Position numbers and translations under genes: made by a program
In this document: in pieces, positions 4 through 53,056 of the stretch
How the letters are laid out: each line of letters begins with the position of its first letter
Position numbering within the stretch: the stretch's first letter is position 1
Notes under the pieces: model-generated
The model's database searches: none
Seen by the model: only the letters and a program-made list of their open reading frames with translations
Told to the model about the DNA's origin: nothing
NCBI GenBank assembly: GCA_964586255.1
Contig: CAZPGE010000006.1
Location: 1-61,826, forward strand
DNA length: 61,826 nucleotides
Direction of reading: 5' to 3'
From: an uncultured Candidatus Saccharibacteria bacterium
Lineage (GTDB): Bacteria > Patescibacteriota > Minisyncoccia > Phycocordibacterales > UBA2100

Positions 4-88
4 GGGCATGTGGCGGAACTGGTATACGCGTACGTCTCAGAAGCGTATGTCGCAAGACTTGGGAGTTCGAGTCTCCCCATGCCCACCA
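4..88 (+). tRNA. tRNA-Leu(CAG)
   Basis: GGGCATG/CATGCCC acceptor stem followed by A-CCA; D-loop GGAACTGGTA; anticodon arm TACGT-CTCAGAA-GCGTA; long variable arm; T-loop GTTCGAGTC. Confidence 0.96.
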
Positions 89-5651: not shown

Positions 5652-5767
5652 ACGTTTGAACGATAATCGGACTTTAACCGTTGCGGCACAGTGGAGGAAT
5701 TTCACCCCTCTTCCTATTCGCCGTTTCTATTTTGGCGAATTCCCGCTTTCGCGAGACAGTCAAACGT
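5652..5767 (-). ncRNA. Cobalamin riboswitch aptamer (compact, short-P6 type)
   Basis: Minus strand AGGAA-GAGGGGTGAAATTCCTC-CACTGTGCCGCAACGGT-TAAAGTCCGA matches the GGGAA / GGTGNAANTCC / CTG..GCAACNGT / AAGYCNG core. An 8-bp closing stem ACGTTTGA/TCAAACGT brackets it, and it lies upstream of DUF4430 genes. Confidence 0.9.
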
Positions 5768-46108: not shown

Positions 46109-46939
46109 ATGAAAAAGGGTGCGGCGAAGAAAAGCGCAAACAACGGCCCGCGATGGGTTGCAGTTTCCGGTGGTTTCGACCCCATCCACATTGGACATGT
46201 TCGGATGTTCAGAGATGCAAGAAAATATGGCGACAGGCTTGTCGTGATAGTCAACAACGACAACTGGCTCGTGAATAAGAAAGGATATGCGTTTATGCCG
46301 GAGACTGAACGCAAAGAGCTCATCGAGTCGCTCCCTTTTGTAGACAAAGTCGTTCTCACCGACCACAAGCGGGGAGAGAGTGACACGAGTGTCATCCGTG
46401 CGCTTCGCGCGGTAAAGCCTCACATCTTCGCCAACGGCGGGGATAGAAAGAAACTTTCGGATATCCCCGAGGCGGCAGTGTGCCAAGAGCTCGGTATCGA
46501 CATGGTCTTCAATATAGGTGCAGGCGGGAAAATACAATCCTCTTCGTGGATGATTCAGAATGCGAGCAGGCCTGTAAAGCGCAGCGTACGTCCGTGGGGG
46601 GAATACTACGGTTGGGACCAGGGCGGTGGCTGGAATCTCAAGACTATATATATAAAGCCGAAGAGCCGCCTGAGTCTGCAGTATCATCATTTCCGTACGG
46701 AGTGTTGGCTGCTCGTAGAGGGCGATGCGGTCGCTACGGTACACGATACGAAAGGTAAGGTGTCTAAGATTGCCCTCAAAAAAGGTGTCACGCAGTGTAT
46801 AGGGAAGAAACAAGTGCACCGGCTCGAATCAAAGAGGGGCGGTGTCGTCGTCGAGGTTGCATATGGTCGCTTCGATGAAGACGACATTGTTCGGCTGGAA
46901 GACGACCACGGCCGCCCCACAAAGCGGGTGCGCTCATGA
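46109..46939 (+). CDS. Fusion: HIGH-type nucleotidyltransferase (RfaE/TagD-like) + type II phosphomannose isomerase cupin
   Basis: [18 protein letters not shown] and GGKIQSSS; then RPWG.Y, LSLQYH, HRLES and EDDIVRLED. Confidence 0.85.
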
Positions 46940-46952
46940 TAGAATGCCGACC

Positions 46953-49220
46953 ATGACCGCACTCGAGAAGACGCTCAGATGGATTGCACTTGGCGGTATC
47001 TTTGCCCTCCCTTTTGTAGCCCTCATTGTCTCGTCATCCCTCTTTTTTCCCTACATAACCGGTAAGAACTTTGCGTTTCGCATACTGGTAGAAATAACCA
47101 CTGCGGCCTGGCTTGCTCTTGCAATCGTGAACCCAGCGTATCGACCGCGCCGCTCTCTCGTCCTTGGCGCCCTCGCACTCTTTGTATTCATCATAGGCCT
47201 CGCGGATATTTTTGGTGCGTACGCATTCAAGAGCCTTTGGAGCAACTATGAGCGCATGGACGGGTGGGTGACTATCGCACATCTCCTTGCATATACGATT
47301 GCCGCGTCGGCGATGTTGAATACGGAAAAACTATGGCGATGGCTGTTTTGGACGTCGCTCGGCGTGTCAGCCTACCTCTCTCTCTATGGCCTGTTGCAGG
47401 TTACGGGCAAAGTTGCGCTCGGTCTCGGCGGCGTTACGGGACTTAGTGGCCGAATCGACGGTACGTTTGGCAACCCAATTTACTTTGCCGTGTACATGCT
47501 CTTCCACGTCTTTATTGCTGCCATGCTGCTGGGGCAGCAGTGGGTGGAGAAAGGGCCAGGGAAGCGACTCTATATATCCGTAGCATATGGCTCCGTCATT
47601 GTGCTCGATACGGCCGCCCTCCTTCTCACAGGTACCCGCGGAACGATGCTCGGGCTCATAGGAGGTACTTTGTTGACGGCATTCCTCATGCTGATTCTGG
47701 CTCGAAATTCACGCAACGTGTGGCGTGCCTCCGCTGCGGTCGTAGTAGGTATCGTAGCACTGACAGGTATTTTCATGCTGGTCAAAGACCAGGCCTGGGT
47801 GCAGCGTATCGGATTCTTGCAGCGTCTCGCGAGCATTTCGCTTTCGGACCAAACAACCGAGTCTCGCTTTGTGAACTGGTCTATGGCGTGGGAAGGGGTA
47901 AAGGAGCGACCTTTACTCGGATGGGGACAGGAGAACTATGCACTCGTCTTCGACAAGTACTACGACCCACGCATGTACAAACAGGAGCCGTGGTTTGACC
48001 GTGTGCACAACATTGTCTTCGACTGGCTCGTGGCTGGGGGTTTTATGGGACTCTTCTCATACCTCGCAATCTTTGGAGCGGTGCTCTGGGTTCTTTGGCG
48101 ACCGACCGTCGAGGAAGGAAGTACTGAGGCTAGCAAGCCGTACGTGCGATCGGGCGGTTTTACGATTGCAGAGCGAAGCATCCTCACTGGTCTTCTTGCC
48201 GGGTACTTCGTCCACAATTTCTTTGTGTTCGACAACGTGACGAGCTACATCCTTTTTGGCACCATACTTGCGTTTATTGCACACAGATCGTCCAAGGCGT
48301 CAGGCGCGCCCGCTATTCCAGCTTCGCGCCCCCTATCACAGAATGTCCTCCCCTATGTTGCGGTACTCTGCGCGATAGCACTGCTCTTCGCGGCATGGTC
48401 GGTGAATCAGAAGGCGCTTGCAGCGAATCGGCTCTTGCTCAGTGCACTCAATCCACAGAGCGATGCTTTGATGAAGCTTGACGCTCTTCAAAAGTCTATA
48501 GAACTCGGGACGTATGGCATGCAGGAGGCGAGAGAACAGCTCTCACAGATGGCAGCCACGGCGAGTGGCTCTTCTGGTGTGTCCGACGATGTGAAGAAAA
48601 AGTACTTCGAGACTGCTATCAGCGAGATGCAGATGCAGGCGGCGGCGTCGCCGCTCGATGCGAGATTCCCGCTTTTCATCGGCGTTGTGTACTCAGCTTT
48701 TGGGCAGTATGACAATGCGAAAGTCGCCTATGAAAAAGCGCTTGAGTTGTCGCCGAAAAAACAGTCGATCATGTATTTGCTCGGTGAGAATGCGGGCGTG
48801 AGGGGCGATAGCACCACTGCGCTTTCGTACTACAAGCGAGCGTATGAACTCGAGACATCCAACCGCGAGGCCGCGATGCAATATGCCGCTGCTCTTATTC
48901 GCTTGGGCCAATCAACAGCGGCGGAAGCGCTCATCGCTCCGTATATAGAGAGTGGAAACGCTGCGGACCCACGTATCCTCGCTGCGTATCGCGCGAATAA
49001 TCAAATATCTAGAGCGATTCCAATATGGGAAGCAGGAGTTCGCGCCAATCCCGAAGATGTGCAGGGATACTTCACCTTGGCTGCAATCCACTATCTCTCA
49101 GGCAACTCGGCGAAAGCGATTGCGATACTCGAAGATGTAAAGCGCAAATTACCCGGCGTCGCGGTACAAGCCGATCCAGTGATTGAACAAATACGAGCGG
49201 GCACTGCGGTCGTCCAATAA
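46953..49220 (+). CDS. O-antigen-ligase-like (WaaL/PglL, Wzy_C) membrane protein with C-terminal TPR repeats
   Basis: GTFGNP, LLLTGTRG, ERPLLGWG.EN, DRVHN..D.LV..G; TPR-like YEKALELSPKK. Confidence 0.88.
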   Translation: MTALEKTLRWIALGGIFALPFVALIVSSSLFFPYITGKNFAFRILVEITTAAWLALAIVNPAYRPRRSLVLGALALFVFIIGLADIFGAYAFKSLWSNYERMDGWVTIAHLLAYTIAASAMLNTEKLWRWLFWTSLGVSAYLSLYGLLQVTGKVALGLGGVTGLSGRIDGTFGNPIYFAVYMLFHVFIAAMLLGQQWVEKGPGKRLYISVAYGSVIVLDTAALLLTGTRGTMLGLIGGTLLTAFLMLILARNSRNVWRASAAVVVGIVALTGIFMLVKDQAWVQRIGFLQRLASISLSDQTTESRFVNWSMAWEGVKERPLLGWGQENYALVFDKYYDPRMYKQEPWFDRVHNIVFDWLVAGGFMGLFSYLAIFGAVLWVLWRPTVEEGSTEASKPYVRSGGFTIAERSILTGLLAGYFVHNFFVFDNVTSYILFGTILAFIAHRSSKASGAPAIPASRPLSQNVLPYVAVLCAIALLFAAWSVNQKALAANRLLLSALNPQSDALMKLDALQKSIELGTYGMQEAREQLSQMAATASGSSGVSDDVKKKYFETAISEMQMQAAASPLDARFPLFIGVVYSAFGQYDNAKVAYEKALELSPKKQSIMYLLGENAGVRGDSTTALSYYKRAYELETSNREAAMQYAAALIRLGQSTAAEALIAPYIESGNAADPRILAAYRANNQISRAIPIWEAGVRANPEDVQGYFTLAAIHYLSGNSAKAIAILEDVKRKLPGVAVQADPVIEQIRAGTAVVQ

Positions 49221-49249
49221 TTGCGTTGGTAAAAAGGGTGCGTTACAAT
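49221..49249 (+). promoter_or_regulatory. sigma70-like promoter driving the intergenic RNA
   Basis: TTGCGT-N17-TACAAT; the G at 49256 follows 6 nt later. Confidence 0.75.
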
Positions 49250-49255
49250 ACGCTC

Positions 49256-49534
49256 GTGAGTGCCACAAAGTGTGGCTCTTAGATTGAAAGTCGTGCAAGT
49301 ACTCGCCGCAAGGCGGGTATTGCATTTGGACCAGCTGACTATACGCCATCTGCGTTGTTGCGGGCGCCCGAACGCAATTCTCACCGTACGGCTTGTACGG
49401 CTCGAACCGCATTCTGCCCGCGCCTAGCACCTGGCGCATCTCAGCGGACCCAATCCATGCGTTGTCATTGTCGCCGTCAGTGGTACTCTTTGAGTAGCAC
49501 TAAAGGGCGTATTGCGGAGGGCGGCGGCACTCAC
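49256..49534 (+). ncRNA. Unclassified structured ncRNA candidate (~280 nt)
   Basis: Terminal 9-bp stem GTGAGTGCC/GGCACTCAC; long-range ATACGCC/GGCGTAT; GCAA-capped hairpin with G-U pairs on the plus strand; at least four further hairpins; no credible ORF. Confidence 0.6.
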
Positions 49535-49924
49535 ATAAGACTTTCACTTTTTTGGAGCTCGCACCCGTCCTCCGCCATGCGCCTTTGGTGCCCCATTTAG
49601 GGGCACTTTTGCGTAGGCGGGTGCGAGCTCCAAAAAAACGAAGGGGGTCGGGGAAACTGTAGTTTCCCCGTGTAGGAATGTCTTGAAAACCGAGAGGTTT
49701 TCAAAGCAAAGCTTTTTGCGTGCTCGCACCCGTCCTCCGCAATGCGCCTTTGGTAATGCAAAAGGTTGCTCCGGACGGGTGCGAGTCAGCTCGCCCTATG
49801 GCTTTGTTCGCCCGCCTGCTGGCGGACTCACATGCGCATTTCGCTTCGCGAACCGGATGAAAAGCGGTCAACCACTTTTCATTCCTCCGCCATGCGCCTT
49901 TGGCACCCTTAATGGGTGCTTTTA
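49500..49924. repeat. Four copies of a ~20-bp motif CCTCCGCMATRCGCCYTT embedded in hairpin modules
   Basis: Direct copies at 49569-49588, 49734-49753 and 49884-49903; inverted copy at ~49500-49520. 20-bp IR 49548-49567/49618-49637; 13-bp IR 49723-49735/49773-49785. Confidence 0.85.
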
Positions 49925-50207
49925 CATTTCGGTGTGCGGGCGACAAAAAAGAATGTACTGATGTATTCACGAGCTATTTGGAGCGTCACGCTGTATTAAG
50001 AAACTTGAGAGAGACTCTTAAGTGAAAACTCGCTCACATAATATTTCTCAACTCTTTTTTCTCGTTTAAAAAATAAAAAAGTTATCCACATTATTTAAAC
50101 GAAAAACAATTTATTGCGAGCGTGAGTGTAATAATAAATTAAACGCTGTAGCGTTTCGCGCGCGAAGCGAAGGTCGAGTTTAATACTCACAATCATTTAT
50201 AACCACC

Positions 50208-50276
50208 ATGGCAAAGGCAAAAAAGAAGAAGGCCACAAAGAAGAAGACGGCCAAGAAGGCAAAGAAACACCGATAG
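50208..50276 (+). CDS. 22-aa Lys/Ala-rich micropeptide MAKAKKKKATKKKTAKKAKKHR
   Basis: ATG..TAG open frame with an A/T-rich leader, repeated AAG codons and its own terminator; below the ORF-track size cut-off. Confidence 0.7.
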   Translation: MAKAKKKKATKKKTAKKAKKHR

Positions 50277-50289
50277 TATCGGTGTCTAG

Positions 50290-50315
50290 AAAAGACCTCC
50301 GCAAGGAGGTCTTTT
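50290..50315 (+). terminator. Intrinsic (potentially bidirectional) terminator
   Basis: AAAAGACCTCC-GCAA-GGAGGTCTTTT. Confidence 0.88.
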
Positions 50316-50530
50316 CGTTTTCTTTCGCTACCGAAGCGTAGCTTCGGCATCGCTTGTTGAGAGAAAACGAAAAGACGGCCGGAGACGGGGCCCCACCTAA
50401 ATGGGGAGGCGAGGCGGGGCCTGCGCGCGTTCGCAAGTGCGAACGACGTGTGGGCCTTTTCTTTTGATGCCTGAAATATCGCTAGTTCGCGTCAATGGAA
50501 TCAAAGAGACGCGGGTGGTAGGATACGTGG

Positions 50531-53056
50531 ATGTCATTTTGGAAAGGATTATTCGGCGACGCGAACGTTGCGGCGCTCAAAAAGGCGCGGCCTATTGTCG
50601 CGGCAGTCAATGCTCTAGAGCCCGATTTCAAGGTTCTCTCCGACGAGGATCTGAGGGCCAAGACCAGTGAGTTTAAAGGGCGGCTTGCAGGAGGCGAGAC
50701 GCTCGAAGACCTAGCGCCGGAGGCTTTTGCGGCTGTTCGCGAAGCCTCGCGCCGCACCCTCGGACAGCGCCATTTCGACGTGCAGCTCATCGGCGGCATG
50801 ATATTGCACAACGGCGACATCGCCGAGATGCGCACCGGTGAAGGTAAGACACTCGTCGCCACGCTTCCGGCGTATCTCAATGCGCTCAGCGGCAAAGGTG
50901 TACACGTGGTTACCGTCAACGATTACCTCTCGCGTCGTGATGCGTCGTGGATGGGGCAGATATACCATGCGCTCGGCCTTACGGTGGGAGTGCTCAACCA
51001 CGAGTCCTCGTTTATCTATGACCCGTCGCATGTACCGGAGGAGCTCAAGCAAGAAGAGGAGGATCTGCAGGACAAAGAGGGAGGTTTCAAGGTCATGCAC
51101 GACTTCCTGAAGCCTTGTACGCGCAAAGAAGCGTATGCGGCCGATATTACCTACGGGACGAACAACGAATACGGATTTGACTATCTGCGCGATAATCTCG
51201 AGTACGAGAGTGCCAACCTTCGTCAGAGATTGCCACAAGACGGTGGCTACAATTTTGCCATTGTCGATGAAATTGACTCGATTCTTATCGACGAGGCGCG
51301 CACCCCGCTCATTATTTCTGCTCCGGTAGCTGATGCTGAGGCTCTGTACGGGCGCTTTGCGACTATCGCCCGTACGATGGTCAGAGAAGAGGACTTTACT
51401 GTGGACGAGAAGCACAAACAGATCATAATGACCGATGCTGGCATAGAAAAGGCCCAAGACGCGCTCGGCATAGACAATATATACACAGATGCCGGCATTA
51501 AGATGGTGCACCACCTTGAGACTGCAGTGCGGGCGAAGGCGATTTTCGAGCGTGACAAGGATTATGTAGTCAAAGATGGTGCCGTCGTCATTGTCGACGA
51601 ATTCACGGGCCGGCTTCAGCCAGGTCGCAGATGGTCAGAGGGGCTTCATCAGGCGATCGAGGCAAAGGAAGATGTCGCCGTTCAGCAGGAATCGAGGACC
51701 TTCGCGTCCATCACATTCCAAAACTATTTCAGGCTCTACGGCAAGCTTGCGGGCATGACGGGTACAGCAGCCACTTCCTCCGAGGAGTTCTACAAAGTGT
51801 ATGGCCTCAACACTGTGAGTGTGCCTACCAACAACCCCGCACAGAGATCTGACCTCGACGACCTTATTCTCCAGACCGAGAACGGAAAGATGCGTGCCAT
51901 CGCAAAGCGGGTACGGGATTTGCATGAAAAAGGACAGCCAGTCCTTATCGGTACGGTTTCAGTCGAGAAGAACGAACTTCTTGGAGCGTATTTTAAGCAG
52001 GAAGGTATCCCGCACGAAGTACTCAATGCGAAGAACCATGAGCGAGAGGGCGAGATAATCGCGCAGGCGGGTCGTAAAGGCGCTGTCACTATAGCGACGA
52101 ACATGGCTGGTCGCGGAGTCGATATCAAGCTCGGTGGTAACCCGGGCACACCTGAGGAGTACGAAGACGTGAAATCTCTCGGTGGTCTTTTTGTGCTCGG
52201 CACAGAGAGGCACGAAGCTCGTCGTATCGACAACCAATTGCGTGGTCGCTCTGGCCGCCAAGGTGATCCTGGTGCGACGCAGTTTTACGTTTCCCTCGAA
52301 GACTCCCTCATGCGCGTGTTTGCCTCTGATGTCATCAAGAGGGTAATGGGGACGTTTAACATTCCCGAAGATGAGCCGATCTACAATTCGATGATTACGC
52401 GTGCGCTCGAAAAAGCACAGACCCGAATCGAGGAGATAAATTTCGATGCACGAAAACATGTTCTCTCGTACGACGATGTACTCAACATCCAGCGCCAGAG
52501 TATTTACGCGCGCCGTCGAGCACTGCTCACAGGGGGTGAGGAAGCGGTGGAAAGTGAACTCGAGAGACTTGCCGCCGCGGACGAATCATTTACCGCAGAT
52601 ATTGCCAAGAAAAAAGAGCAGCTTGGAAACGTGTTCATTCCAACTGTTCGTAGAATATTGCTACAGGGTATCGACTTCCTCTGGGTTGAGCATCTCGAGG
52701 CGATGGAGTACCTTCGTTCAAGTGTGAATCTGCGCGCATATGGTCAGCGTGACCCGCTCGTCGAGTATAAGAAAGAAGGACTGAAATTATTCCAAACGAT
52801 GGAGGAGACGTACGCTACTCACGTTCGTTCTCTTATACCAAATATTGTGAGTACTCCCGGCGCGCAAACATCTTCGCCTCAGCAGCGCTCAGTAACCAAA
52901 GCAGTCGCGTCGATCACGGCGACGTCCGACACTCCGTTAAAGAAAGAATATGGTCGCAATGATAAAGTCGTCATATCGAATGGCACCGATACGAAAGAAA
53001 TGAAATACAAAAAAGCGGAGCAGCTACTTTCGGAGGGCTGGCGCATCGTTGGGTAG
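50531..53056 (+). CDS. secA: Preprotein translocase ATPase SecA
   Basis: EMRTGEGKT, VVTVNDYL, IVDEIDSILIDEARTPLIIS, KLAGMTGTA, IATNMAGRGVDI and RIDNQLRGRSGRQGDPG. Confidence 0.98.
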   Translation: MSFWKGLFGDANVAALKKARPIVAAVNALEPDFKVLSDEDLRAKTSEFKGRLAGGETLEDLAPEAFAAVREASRRTLGQRHFDVQLIGGMILHNGDIAEMRTGEGKTLVATLPAYLNALSGKGVHVVTVNDYLSRRDASWMGQIYHALGLTVGVLNHESSFIYDPSHVPEELKQEEEDLQDKEGGFKVMHDFLKPCTRKEAYAADITYGTNNEYGFDYLRDNLEYESANLRQRLPQDGGYNFAIVDEIDSILIDEARTPLIISAPVADAEALYGRFATIARTMVREEDFTVDEKHKQIIMTDAGIEKAQDALGIDNIYTDAGIKMVHHLETAVRAKAIFERDKDYVVKDGAVVIVDEFTGRLQPGRRWSEGLHQAIEAKEDVAVQQESRTFASITFQNYFRLYGKLAGMTGTAATSSEEFYKVYGLNTVSVPTNNPAQRSDLDDLILQTENGKMRAIAKRVRDLHEKGQPVLIGTVSVEKNELLGAYFKQEGIPHEVLNAKNHEREGEIIAQAGRKGAVTIATNMAGRGVDIKLGGNPGTPEEYEDVKSLGGLFVLGTERHEARRIDNQLRGRSGRQGDPGATQFYVSLEDSLMRVFASDVIKRVMGTFNIPEDEPIYNSMITRALEKAQTRIEEINFDARKHVLSYDDVLNIQRQSIYARRRALLTGGEEAVESELERLAAADESFTADIAKKKEQLGNVFIPTVRRILLQGIDFLWVEHLEAMEYLRSSVNLRAYGQRDPLVEYKKEGLKLFQTMEETYATHVRSLIPNIVSTPGAQTSSPQQRSVTKAVASITATSDTPLKKEYGRNDKVVISNGTDTKEMKYKKAEQLLSEGWRIVG

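Follow-up and report, generated by a model that had tools for sequence, protein, structure and literature searches.

The intergenic region upstream of secA

This report concerns a pair of putative small RNA genes, termed A and B, on contig CAZPGE010000006.1 of an uncultured patescibacterial genome (assembly GCA_964586255.1); the whole 61,826-nt stretch that was analysed is referred to as the window, and all coordinates are positions within it. A preliminary description of the window had flagged the interval 49221-49534 as a single, stand-alone RNA of about 280 nt, composed of several folded domains. The flagged interval lies within a 1.3-kb gap between a gene for a Wzy_C/TPR membrane protein upstream (46842-49220) and secA downstream (50531-53056). 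The window's SecA shares 96% identity with its counterpart in a Parcubacteria metagenome-assembled genome, and 59-80% with those of about 50 assemblies labelled as Kaiserbacteria or Paceibacteria, and the region was compared by BLAST and nhmmer against 80 SecA loci.

The comparison with relatives revealed two conserved units, at 49256-49327 and 49503-49586, and an unconserved middle; in the closest relative (L001) about 77 unrelated nucleotides occupy the place of about 180 in the window. We read the flagged 280 nt or so as a small RNA gene (A), an insert, and part of a second RNA gene (B), of which the interval takes in the promoter and the first half. The two predicted RNAs are read as a pair that is kept in more than 100 ultra-small genomes (Parcubacteria/Candidate Phyla Radiation, CPR), co-evolving as base-pairing partners. 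We hold with high confidence that there are two RNA genes with promoters of their own, that B forms a long stem, and that two intermolecular helices, h1 and h2, clamp A onto the loop of B. All of the motifs that had been quoted for the flagged interval are indeed found where they had been placed; the notion of one multi-domain molecule is contradicted by 18 of 89 loci in which A and B are encoded on opposite strands. When the flagged stretch was folded and compared with shuffled sequences, the plus strand gave z = -3.7 and the minus strand z = -6.7. As the minus strand folds even better, energy alone decides neither the strand nor the boundaries, and it is the comparative data that decide the strand. 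The covariation test on homologues that had been proposed as a check upholds h1, h2 and the B stem, and lends no support to the boundaries of a single RNA or to its long-range pair.

RNA B

The best-conserved block of the region, at 49503-49586 on the plus strand, is the core hairpin of RNA B, in which a 5' arm (49503-24) and a 3' arm (49565-86) pair over 22 bp and enclose an apical loop (49525-64). Its identity is 77-96% in 38 loci whose SecA proteins are 59-96% identical, and it may point either way with respect to secA. The window has one full copy of B, to which a covariance model derived from the alignment gives 91 bits (E = 1.4e-22); the model also matches 36 of the 52 SecA loci of Paceibacteria type and none of the 28 from other bacteria. 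A search of metagenomes with a pattern taken from the invariant part of the B block gave 120 stretches, of which about 95 are genuine; the remaining matches (L081, L088, L089, L096, L125 and others, on human-gut contigs) are chance hits to a gut-bacterial coding sequence, GGCGGCACTCAAGGAAAAGGCTTTGGAGCT, and were excluded. The B-bearing loci number 128, with one copy each, and hold 120 distinct sequences, one of which is a chance match.

The evidence for the stem comes from 79 non-redundant sequences. Across these, 93.0% of the alignment cells are paired, against 71.3 ± 0.7% after shuffling and 42-50% in slid registers, and compensatory change is seen in 18 of the 22 pairs. Cells in which both partners have changed number 345, against 98.8 ± 10.3 in shuffles (0 of 500 shuffles). 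G.U cells exceed A.C cells by about 5 to 1 (224 against 46), an excess which argues that the pairing partner strands belong to an RNA transcribed from the plus strand of the window. This stem bears directly on two of the earlier proposals. The 3' end that had been placed at 49534 falls within the loop of the covarying stem, and the long-range helix that had been drawn between ATACGCC (49341) and GGCGTAT (49506) is not sustained, as GGCGTAT is part of the B stem and the region around 49341 pairs locally in the minimum free energy (MFE) fold.

The loop of B, of about 41 nt, is nearly invariant in the same 79 sequences except for the segment that pairs in h2 and the joiner beside it. It reads GGCACUCAC-AUAA-GACUUUCA and continues with an almost invariant 18-nt strand, here called strand X (CUUUUUUGGAGCUCGCAC, with the core UUUGGAGCUCGCAC; 49547-49564, plus strand). 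The columns of the core are invariant or at least 90% conserved, and the length of the U run of the strand varies. The strong hairpin with T-runs that had been noted downstream of the flagged interval is confirmed at 49547-49642, as a long hairpin that has A runs as well as T runs.

RNA B would be transcribed from an extended -10 promoter, TGGTACTCT, at 49481-49489 (plus strand). Of 114 distinct regions upstream of B, 90 have the motif TGnTAnnnT, against 6 of 109 control windows, and the -10 box most often ends 32-34 nt before the GCACTC anchor, that is, 7-9 nt before the base of the stem, a spacing which places the predicted start at about 49496. The promoter stays with B where A is absent or inverted (L009, L002, L004, L016). 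A helix that had been proposed between AGTGGTACTC and GAGTAGCACT can be formed in this sequence; it is not conserved as a hairpin and overlaps the extended -10 motif, which is conserved. At the other end, a terminator-like hairpin, GUGCCCC-AUUUA-GGGGCAC followed by UUUU (49588-49610, plus strand), which a terminator scan listed in part, is the probable 3' end of RNA B in this genome; in relatives the corresponding position is held by a U run or a small hairpin and is variable. RNA B as a whole would thus extend from about 49496 to 49610 on the plus strand, with a length of about 90-115 nt.

RNA A

RNA A, of about 72 nt, is predicted to start at G49256, 7 nt after the -10 box, and to end at about 49327 (plus strand). 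Its promoter (49221-49249, plus strand) consists of a -35-like TTGCGT (49221-26), a 17-nt spacer and the -10 box TACAAT (49244-49), just as the preliminary description had it, with a start at about 49256. A consensus scan skipped this promoter because its -35 element is weak. The comparative evidence for the -10 box is the position of a TAnnnT box, which in 76 of 91 relatives has its end exactly 6 nt ahead of the first letter of [G/A]TGAGTG; an extended TGn is present in 40 of 91. Since the scan for RNA A demanded a -10 box 4-9 nt upstream, the evidence lies in the sharp peak at 6 nt and not in the presence of the box. This fixed spacing before GTGAGTG also bears out the earlier choice of the plus strand. 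An upstream helix of P1 type, GGGUGCG (49237-43) with CGCACCC, was considered and rejected, as the upstream letters are unconserved and lie within the promoter.

The transcript would begin with a 5' word, GUGAGUGCC (49256-64, plus strand), which provides the A strand of h1, and continue with a small hairpin, AGUGCCACA/UGUGGCUCU (49259-79, plus strand), a second word, UGAAAGUC (49285-92, plus strand), which provides the A strand of h2, and a terminator hairpin with a GCAA loop (49293-49325) and a short UUU run (49325-27), also on the plus strand. The same layout recurs in relatives, as a 5' word, a small hairpin of varying length whose base is AGUGCC paired with GGCUCU, an [N]GAAAGUC word, and a GC-rich tetraloop hairpin with a U run, in RNAs of about 70-85 nt. 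The hairpin GTGCAAGTACTCGCC-GCAA-GGCGGGTATTGCAT with its three G-U pairs, pointed out earlier, is therefore the terminator of A, and its stem and U run are kept across about 90 relatives, the pairing being preserved despite widely differing sequences, in a scan that selected for such a terminator hairpin. RNAalifold, applied to a MAFFT alignment of A, returned no pairs because the hairpins were misaligned, and a per-sequence analysis was taken instead.

RNA A is present, with the same layout, in 89 of the 128 B-bearing loci. It lies upstream of B on the same strand in 71 of these 89, with 82-3549 nt (median 154) from the start of A to the stem of B, and in the 18 loci of opposite strand the arrangement is mostly convergent. 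The opposite strands and the separations of up to 3.5 kb argue that A and B are separate transcription units. RNA A has a promoter and an intrinsic terminator that bracket about 72 nt, within the 50-300 nt expected of a trans-acting base-pairing small RNA (sRNA), an argument that is partly circular because both features were used in finding A; it also has complementarity to a partner, through h1 and h2 with B, that is held by compensatory change.

Pairing of A and B in trans

RNA A would dock on the loop of RNA B by two helices. In h1, nucleotides 1-9 of A, GUGAGUGCC, pair with GGCACUCAC in the B loop (49526-49534, plus strand; -17.7 kcal/mol), and in h2 the A word UGAAAGUC (49285-92) pairs with GACUUUCA of B (49539-46, plus strand; -10.5 kcal/mol). 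Between the two B strands lies the joiner AUAA (49535-38), which is 1-7 nt long in relatives. The sequence of h1 is almost fixed, and its first pair is G-C in 74 cases, G.U in 10, A-U in 4 and A.C in none, nucleotide 1 of A being an A only where its partner is a U (4 of 4). This is the helix that had been described as a 9-bp closing stem between GTGAGTGCC (49256-64) and GGCACTCAC (49526-34): the stem is present and it covaries, and it joins two RNAs instead of the ends of one. Given that A and B are separate genes, it is intermolecular, and would form within one molecule at most in read-through transcripts.

The sequence of h2, a helix that the preliminary description did not have, varies freely, with at least 12 distinct compensatory variants, among them GAAAAUC/GAUUUUC, AUAAAGUC/GACUUUAU, ACAAUGUUC/GAACAUUGU, GAAUGUC/GACAUU, AAAUGUC/GACAUUU and AGAAAGUC/GACUUUCU, and with extended forms that reach 13 bp. 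Cognate h2 pairs have a mean energy of -10.1 kcal/mol, against -8.71 ± 0.13 kcal/mol for shuffled partners (0 of 2000 shuffles), and where B lacks the consensus word its own A binds it at least 1 and up to 9 kcal/mol better than a consensus-type A does (12 of 15 cases). The wobble intermediates, together with the separation of the partners by kilobases or on opposite strands, argue for diffusible RNAs and against a repeat maintained at the level of DNA.

The order of the h1 and h2 strands crosses, which gives the complex a pseudoknot-like junction. The clamp would place h1 beside the stem of B and h2 beside the terminator stem of A, in positions suited to stacking, and would leave the invariant 18-nt strand exposed.

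Insertions around A and B

The unconserved spacer between A and B ranges from about 10 nt to several kilobases and carries optional insertions. In the window it contains an accessory, self-contained, hairpin-rich insertion of 116 nt (49333-49448, plus strand), which is closed by a local stem in the MFE fold and includes the helices GCGTT/AACGC, CCGTAC/GTACGG and GCGGGCGCC/GGCGC. Relatives of this insertion were found by nhmmer only in L006, L051, L112 and L015 (5 loci with the window), always directly 3' of RNA A. The nested GC-rich helices that had been counted among the domains of the flagged RNA are thus real features of the sequence that belong to an optional insert.

The 3' side of RNA B has been invaded as well. 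An inserted element (49618-49711, plus strand; inverted repeat I3) starts with a complement of strand X, CGGGUGCGAGCUCCAAAAAAA (49618-42), and has a two-hairpin core at 49644-49711 that is present 3' of B in 14 relatives. It is followed by a displaced direct copy of the B 3' end, comprising strand X and the 3' arm (49712-49754, plus strand), and by a further, more degraded copy at 49862-49904; these members of the direct-repeat family D5 are 91% and 60% identical to 49547-89. In relatives (L022, L023, L016, L005, L021) the letters of the outer stem that vary in the first copy are matched in the second, and the run lengths of U and A covary. A nearby universal partner for strand X was not found: its complement occurs in just 19 of 127 loci, where it invariably flanks an inserted element, a distribution which argues that it is not the general partner of the strand. 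Small structured elements are also inserted 3' of A in L015 (L015:2920-3075), and each such element is flanked by the complement and a direct copy of the 3' end of the neighbouring RNA. Like stable-RNA genes, B serves as a target for insertions, and so does A in L015. A miniature inverted-repeat transposable element or a repeat of the repetitive extragenic palindromic type was considered for the whole flagged stretch of 279 nt and rejected, as there is no other copy in the window, one B per locus (128 loci), and none in viral contigs.

Gene neighbourhood

In distant lineages the gene order is a Wzy_C-like gene, A, B, murB, a gene for a K/R-rich protein, and secA. B ends 8-40 nt before the start codon of murB or secA in about 24 diverse loci, which were retrieved by the sequence of B and not with SecA as bait. 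In the basal loci L032, L040, L033, L085 and L140 a -10-like box lies within or just after the B 3' arm, about 7 nt before the secA ATG, and such boxes would give leaderless secA mRNAs. In L031, L100 and L128 no such box precedes secA, and some of the gaps have no room for a promoter; the layout of these loci suggests that transcription probably reads through from the B promoter into secA. Between B and secA, the window and the loci most closely related to it have insertions, a conserved DnaA box and a micro-open reading frame (micro-ORF) that is rich in lysine and has its own promoter. The window SecA itself (50531-53056) has Pfam matches to the DEAD, PPXD, P-loop and wing/scaffold regions, and its C-terminal SEC-C zinc-binding motif is without a Pfam match.

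The DnaA box, TTATCCACA at 50082-50090, is perfect, is preceded by an A/T-rich stretch, and recurs at this place, between B and secA, in the majority of relatives. It resembles a site under DnaA control more than an oriC; a replication origin was rejected because the window holds a single perfect DnaA box and no turn in GC skew.

The micro-ORF, MAKAKKKKATKKKTAKKAKKHR (50209-50277, with a leader at 50120-50208), has counterparts of the form MAKKKK...RR upstream of secA in dozens of relatives and, in basal lineages, a counterpart of about 100 amino acids, rich in K, R, A and P, between murB and secA. Its leader (..GCGGGUCGAnnUUAGCACUCA..) holds GCACUCA, which is the heart of the B strand of h1 and is complementary to the 5' end of A, and [C/U]ACUC[A/C/U] is kept in 45 of 114 micro-ORF leaders. 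The leader is a possible second target of A. A search of the window for additional seed targets, as CACUCAC near gene starts, gave no clear pattern.

Comparison with known RNAs

The earlier statement that the promoter-driven RNA belongs to no recognisable class has stood up to an Rfam search: the flagged region has no match at the gathering score, the stretch 49100-50600 has none even at E <= 10, and 14 related loci are likewise without a match. Elsewhere in the window, Rfam recognises an AdoCbl-II (cobalamin) riboswitch aptamer at 5658-5726 on the minus strand, with 37.6 bits barely over the gathering score of 36.5. ARAGORN found only a tRNA-Leu(CAG), at the very start of the window (4-88, plus strand), and no transfer-messenger RNA (tmRNA). 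The literature searched held no paper describing RNAs A and B.

Among the housekeeping RNAs, tmRNA and tRNA were rejected because the region has no tRNA-like domain by ARAGORN or Rfam. The small RNA of the signal recognition particle (SRP; RF00169) was rejected for want of a match at E <= 10 and because the B loop lacks the helix-8 motif, and 6S RNA (RF00013) for want of a match and because B, at about 90 nt, is a stem with a terminal loop and has no two-sided central bubble. B does resemble the SRP RNA (4.5S, ffs) and 6S RNA in its size of about 90-115 nt, its long terminal stem, its strong promoter and its single copy, and, like ffs, tRNA and tmRNA genes, it serves as an insertion target; it is the helix-8 GGAA/AGCA motif of the one, and the layout of central bubble plus terminal stem of the other, that are missing from it. 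Parcubacteria are reported to have neither ffh nor ffs (Nelson & Stegen 2015, PMC4508563). The two-piece (permuted) tmRNA offers another parallel, as it too consists of two chains assembled by base pairing into one folded unit; its pieces are cut from one precursor, whereas A and B have separate promoters and can be on opposite strands.

The regulatory RNAs provide closer parallels for A. Like the sRNAs RybB, OmrA/B and MicA, which serve in the enterobacterial envelope stress response, A is about 70-85 nt long, has its own promoter and a Rho-independent terminator, and carries a (semi-)unstructured 5' word, and A-B likewise shows covarying pairing with a partner and has envelope and secretion genes as neighbours. 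In contrast to RybB-type sRNAs, A has two words that clamp one loop in crossing order, and its partner is an ultra-conserved hairpin RNA with its own promoter; a dedicated stable partner of this kind recalls the sponge or decoy RNAs of sRNAs. In the antisense systems CopA/CopT of plasmid R1 and RNA I/RNA II of ColE1, a small RNA likewise recognises the apical loop of a long hairpin and forms a multi-helix complex, and the resulting junction changes the fate of the target leader. Those plasmid RNAs are cis-encoded and fully complementary, whereas A and B share 7-9 bp plus 6-12 bp, may lie side by side or apart, and are chromosomal and conserved across a class of bacteria. A-B is unrelated in sequence to any catalogued family, and is unusual among base-pairing sRNAs in its two-site clamp, its ultra-conserved partner RNA and the breadth of its natural covariation.

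What the A-B pair may do

We think it probable, with considerable reservation, that the flagged interval is a composite of two separately transcribed, paired small RNAs and an insertion, in which A tunes a murB/secA leader or the two act as a free RNA pair. A more specific reading, to which we give a probability of roughly 35-40%, is that A is a dedicated base-pairing sRNA and B its partner at the head of the murB/secA block, such that A alters the leader or B titrates A. In basal lineages, binding of A would remodel or mark the B leader hairpin and so tune genes of the cell envelope and of secretion. In Kaiserbacteria-type genomes, including the present one, B would have been uncoupled from these genes by insertions and has a terminator-like hairpin of its own, and the pair would act as free RNAs, either through titration of A by B or as a small ribonucleoprotein (RNP).

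Several observations weigh against this sRNA-and-leader reading. Co-transcription of B and secA, although likely in some lineages from the arrangement of their loci, is unproven overall, as several basal loci have a -10-like box between B and the start codon. In about 8 SecA loci B points the opposite way to secA, and either such inversion or the combination of insertions with a terminator-like hairpin, as in the window, rules out a role as cis leader in the genomes concerned, where B is just as conserved. Some close relatives (L003, L011, L012) have neither A nor B near secA. In the MFE fold, the small hairpin of A takes up part of its 5' word. About 10 public runs labelled as RNA, including a soil metatranscriptome, contain the consensus core of B; the contigs come from unstranded assemblies, run into flanking or promoter letters, may represent DNA or read-through, and show at best the presence of B and not the ends of a transcript. 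The B copy of this genome was in no RNA run searched. Finally, h1 and the 18-nt strand are more nearly invariant than the pairing of A with B would require, which points to a further partner, protein or RNA.

The fixed h1 and the exposed strand, in implying a third partner, keep alive the reading of A and B as halves of one bipartite housekeeping RNA, the core of an RNP with a structural, catalytic or binding role, in which the invariant 18-nt strand would be the working surface and the adjacency to secA a mere matter of conserved gene order. It would account for the near-invariance of most of the B loop in more than 100 genomes, for an h1 that stays invariant while h2 freely covaries, for strong promoters on both genes, for the use of B as an insertion target with displaced 3' copies, as in tRNA and tmRNA genes, and for the conservation of B even where it is inverted and uncoupled from secA. 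The absence of A and B from the secA neighbourhood of some close relatives, the narrow range of the clade, and the construction of A, with its 5' word and terminator, in the manner of a classic regulatory sRNA are hard to reconcile with such a role, and on balance we regard it as doubtful, if worth serious consideration.

It could also be argued that A, the spacer and B form one transcript of about 330-360 nt from the promoter at 49221-49, with h1 and h2 intramolecular and pseudoknotted. In 71 of 89 loci the two genes follow one another on one strand, frequently with no more than about 10-80 nt between the terminator of A and B, which would suit this arrangement, and read-through is plausible here as the terminator of A has only three U residues; the RNA-run contigs, moreover, extend past the predicted 5' end of B. 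A single transcript is nevertheless unlikely in view of the 18 loci with opposite strands, the distances of up to 3.5 kb, the extended -10 that B has retained for itself in 90 of 114 cases, the unconserved spacer of about 10 nt to several kilobases, and the conserved terminator-like hairpin and U run at the end of A.

More speculative, and improbable to a slightly greater degree, is the idea that A and B form a bipartite RNP RNA with a part in protein export, in bacteria from which SRP is reported to be absent. Here the junction of A with B would be pseudoknotted, and the 18-nt strand (core UUUGGAGCUCGCAC) would bind SecA or another export or ribosome factor, serving as a cofactor or sensor that couples the expression of secA and murB to secretion demand, in a secM-like manner, or as a stand-in for an SRP-type RNA. 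Such a role would fit the tight linkage to secA, the restriction to Paceibacteria-type genomes, and the invariance of h1 and the exposed strand.

A DNA-level element, in which the arms of B would be a recombination or attachment site or an operator and the similarity of A to B would stem from templated copying of adjacent sequence, of the kind found around the inserted elements, appears very improbable. The direct copies of the B 3' end beside inserted elements, the occurrence of B in either orientation, and the fact that inverted repeats covary at the DNA level too are in keeping with it, whereas the strand-specific preference for G.U over A.C (224 to 46 in the B stem, 10 to 0 in h1), the promoters at a fixed distance upstream of both units, and the covariation of h2 across kilobases and opposite strands are not.

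There is, lastly, a formal likeness to type A RNase P RNA (RF00010), as A-B shares with its P1-P2-P3-P4 region a terminal stem, two crossing long-range helices and a hairpin between them. A split, minimised RNase P-like ribozyme would have h1 as P2, the A hairpin as P3, GAAAGUC/GACUUUC as P4 and the B stem as P1, and the crossing order h1(5') < h2(5') < h1(3') < h2(3') is that of P2 and P4; the GAAAGUC word of the P4-like 5' strand also resembles conserved region I (CR-I) of RNase P, GGAAAGUCC. This identity is scarcely credible, and RNase P (RF00010/RF00011) was rejected: there is no model match even at E <= 10, the P4-like helix freely changes its sequence (AAUGUUC, AAUGUC, AUAAAGUC), the joiner in the place of J2/4 is 1-7 nt long, equivalents of the specificity domain, of P15 and of CR-II to CR-IV are missing, A-B comes in two pieces with two promoters, and Lui et al. 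(10.1101/2020.03.05.979740) found type A rnpB, in some cases diverged, in all the circularised CPR genomes that they examined.

Implications for CPR bacteria

The literature searched held no description of regulatory RNAs in CPR bacteria. A large part of bacterial diversity belongs to Parcubacteria and other CPR bacteria, and these hosts are thought to translate largely without Shine-Dalgarno sites. The A-B pair precedes genes of the cell envelope and of secretion, and its clade has been reported to lack SRP. As a two-helix clamp on a hairpin loop, it offers a testable model of RNA-RNA recognition, in which more than 100 natural variants record compensatory evolution between two molecules, evidence of a strength that is rare before any experiment.

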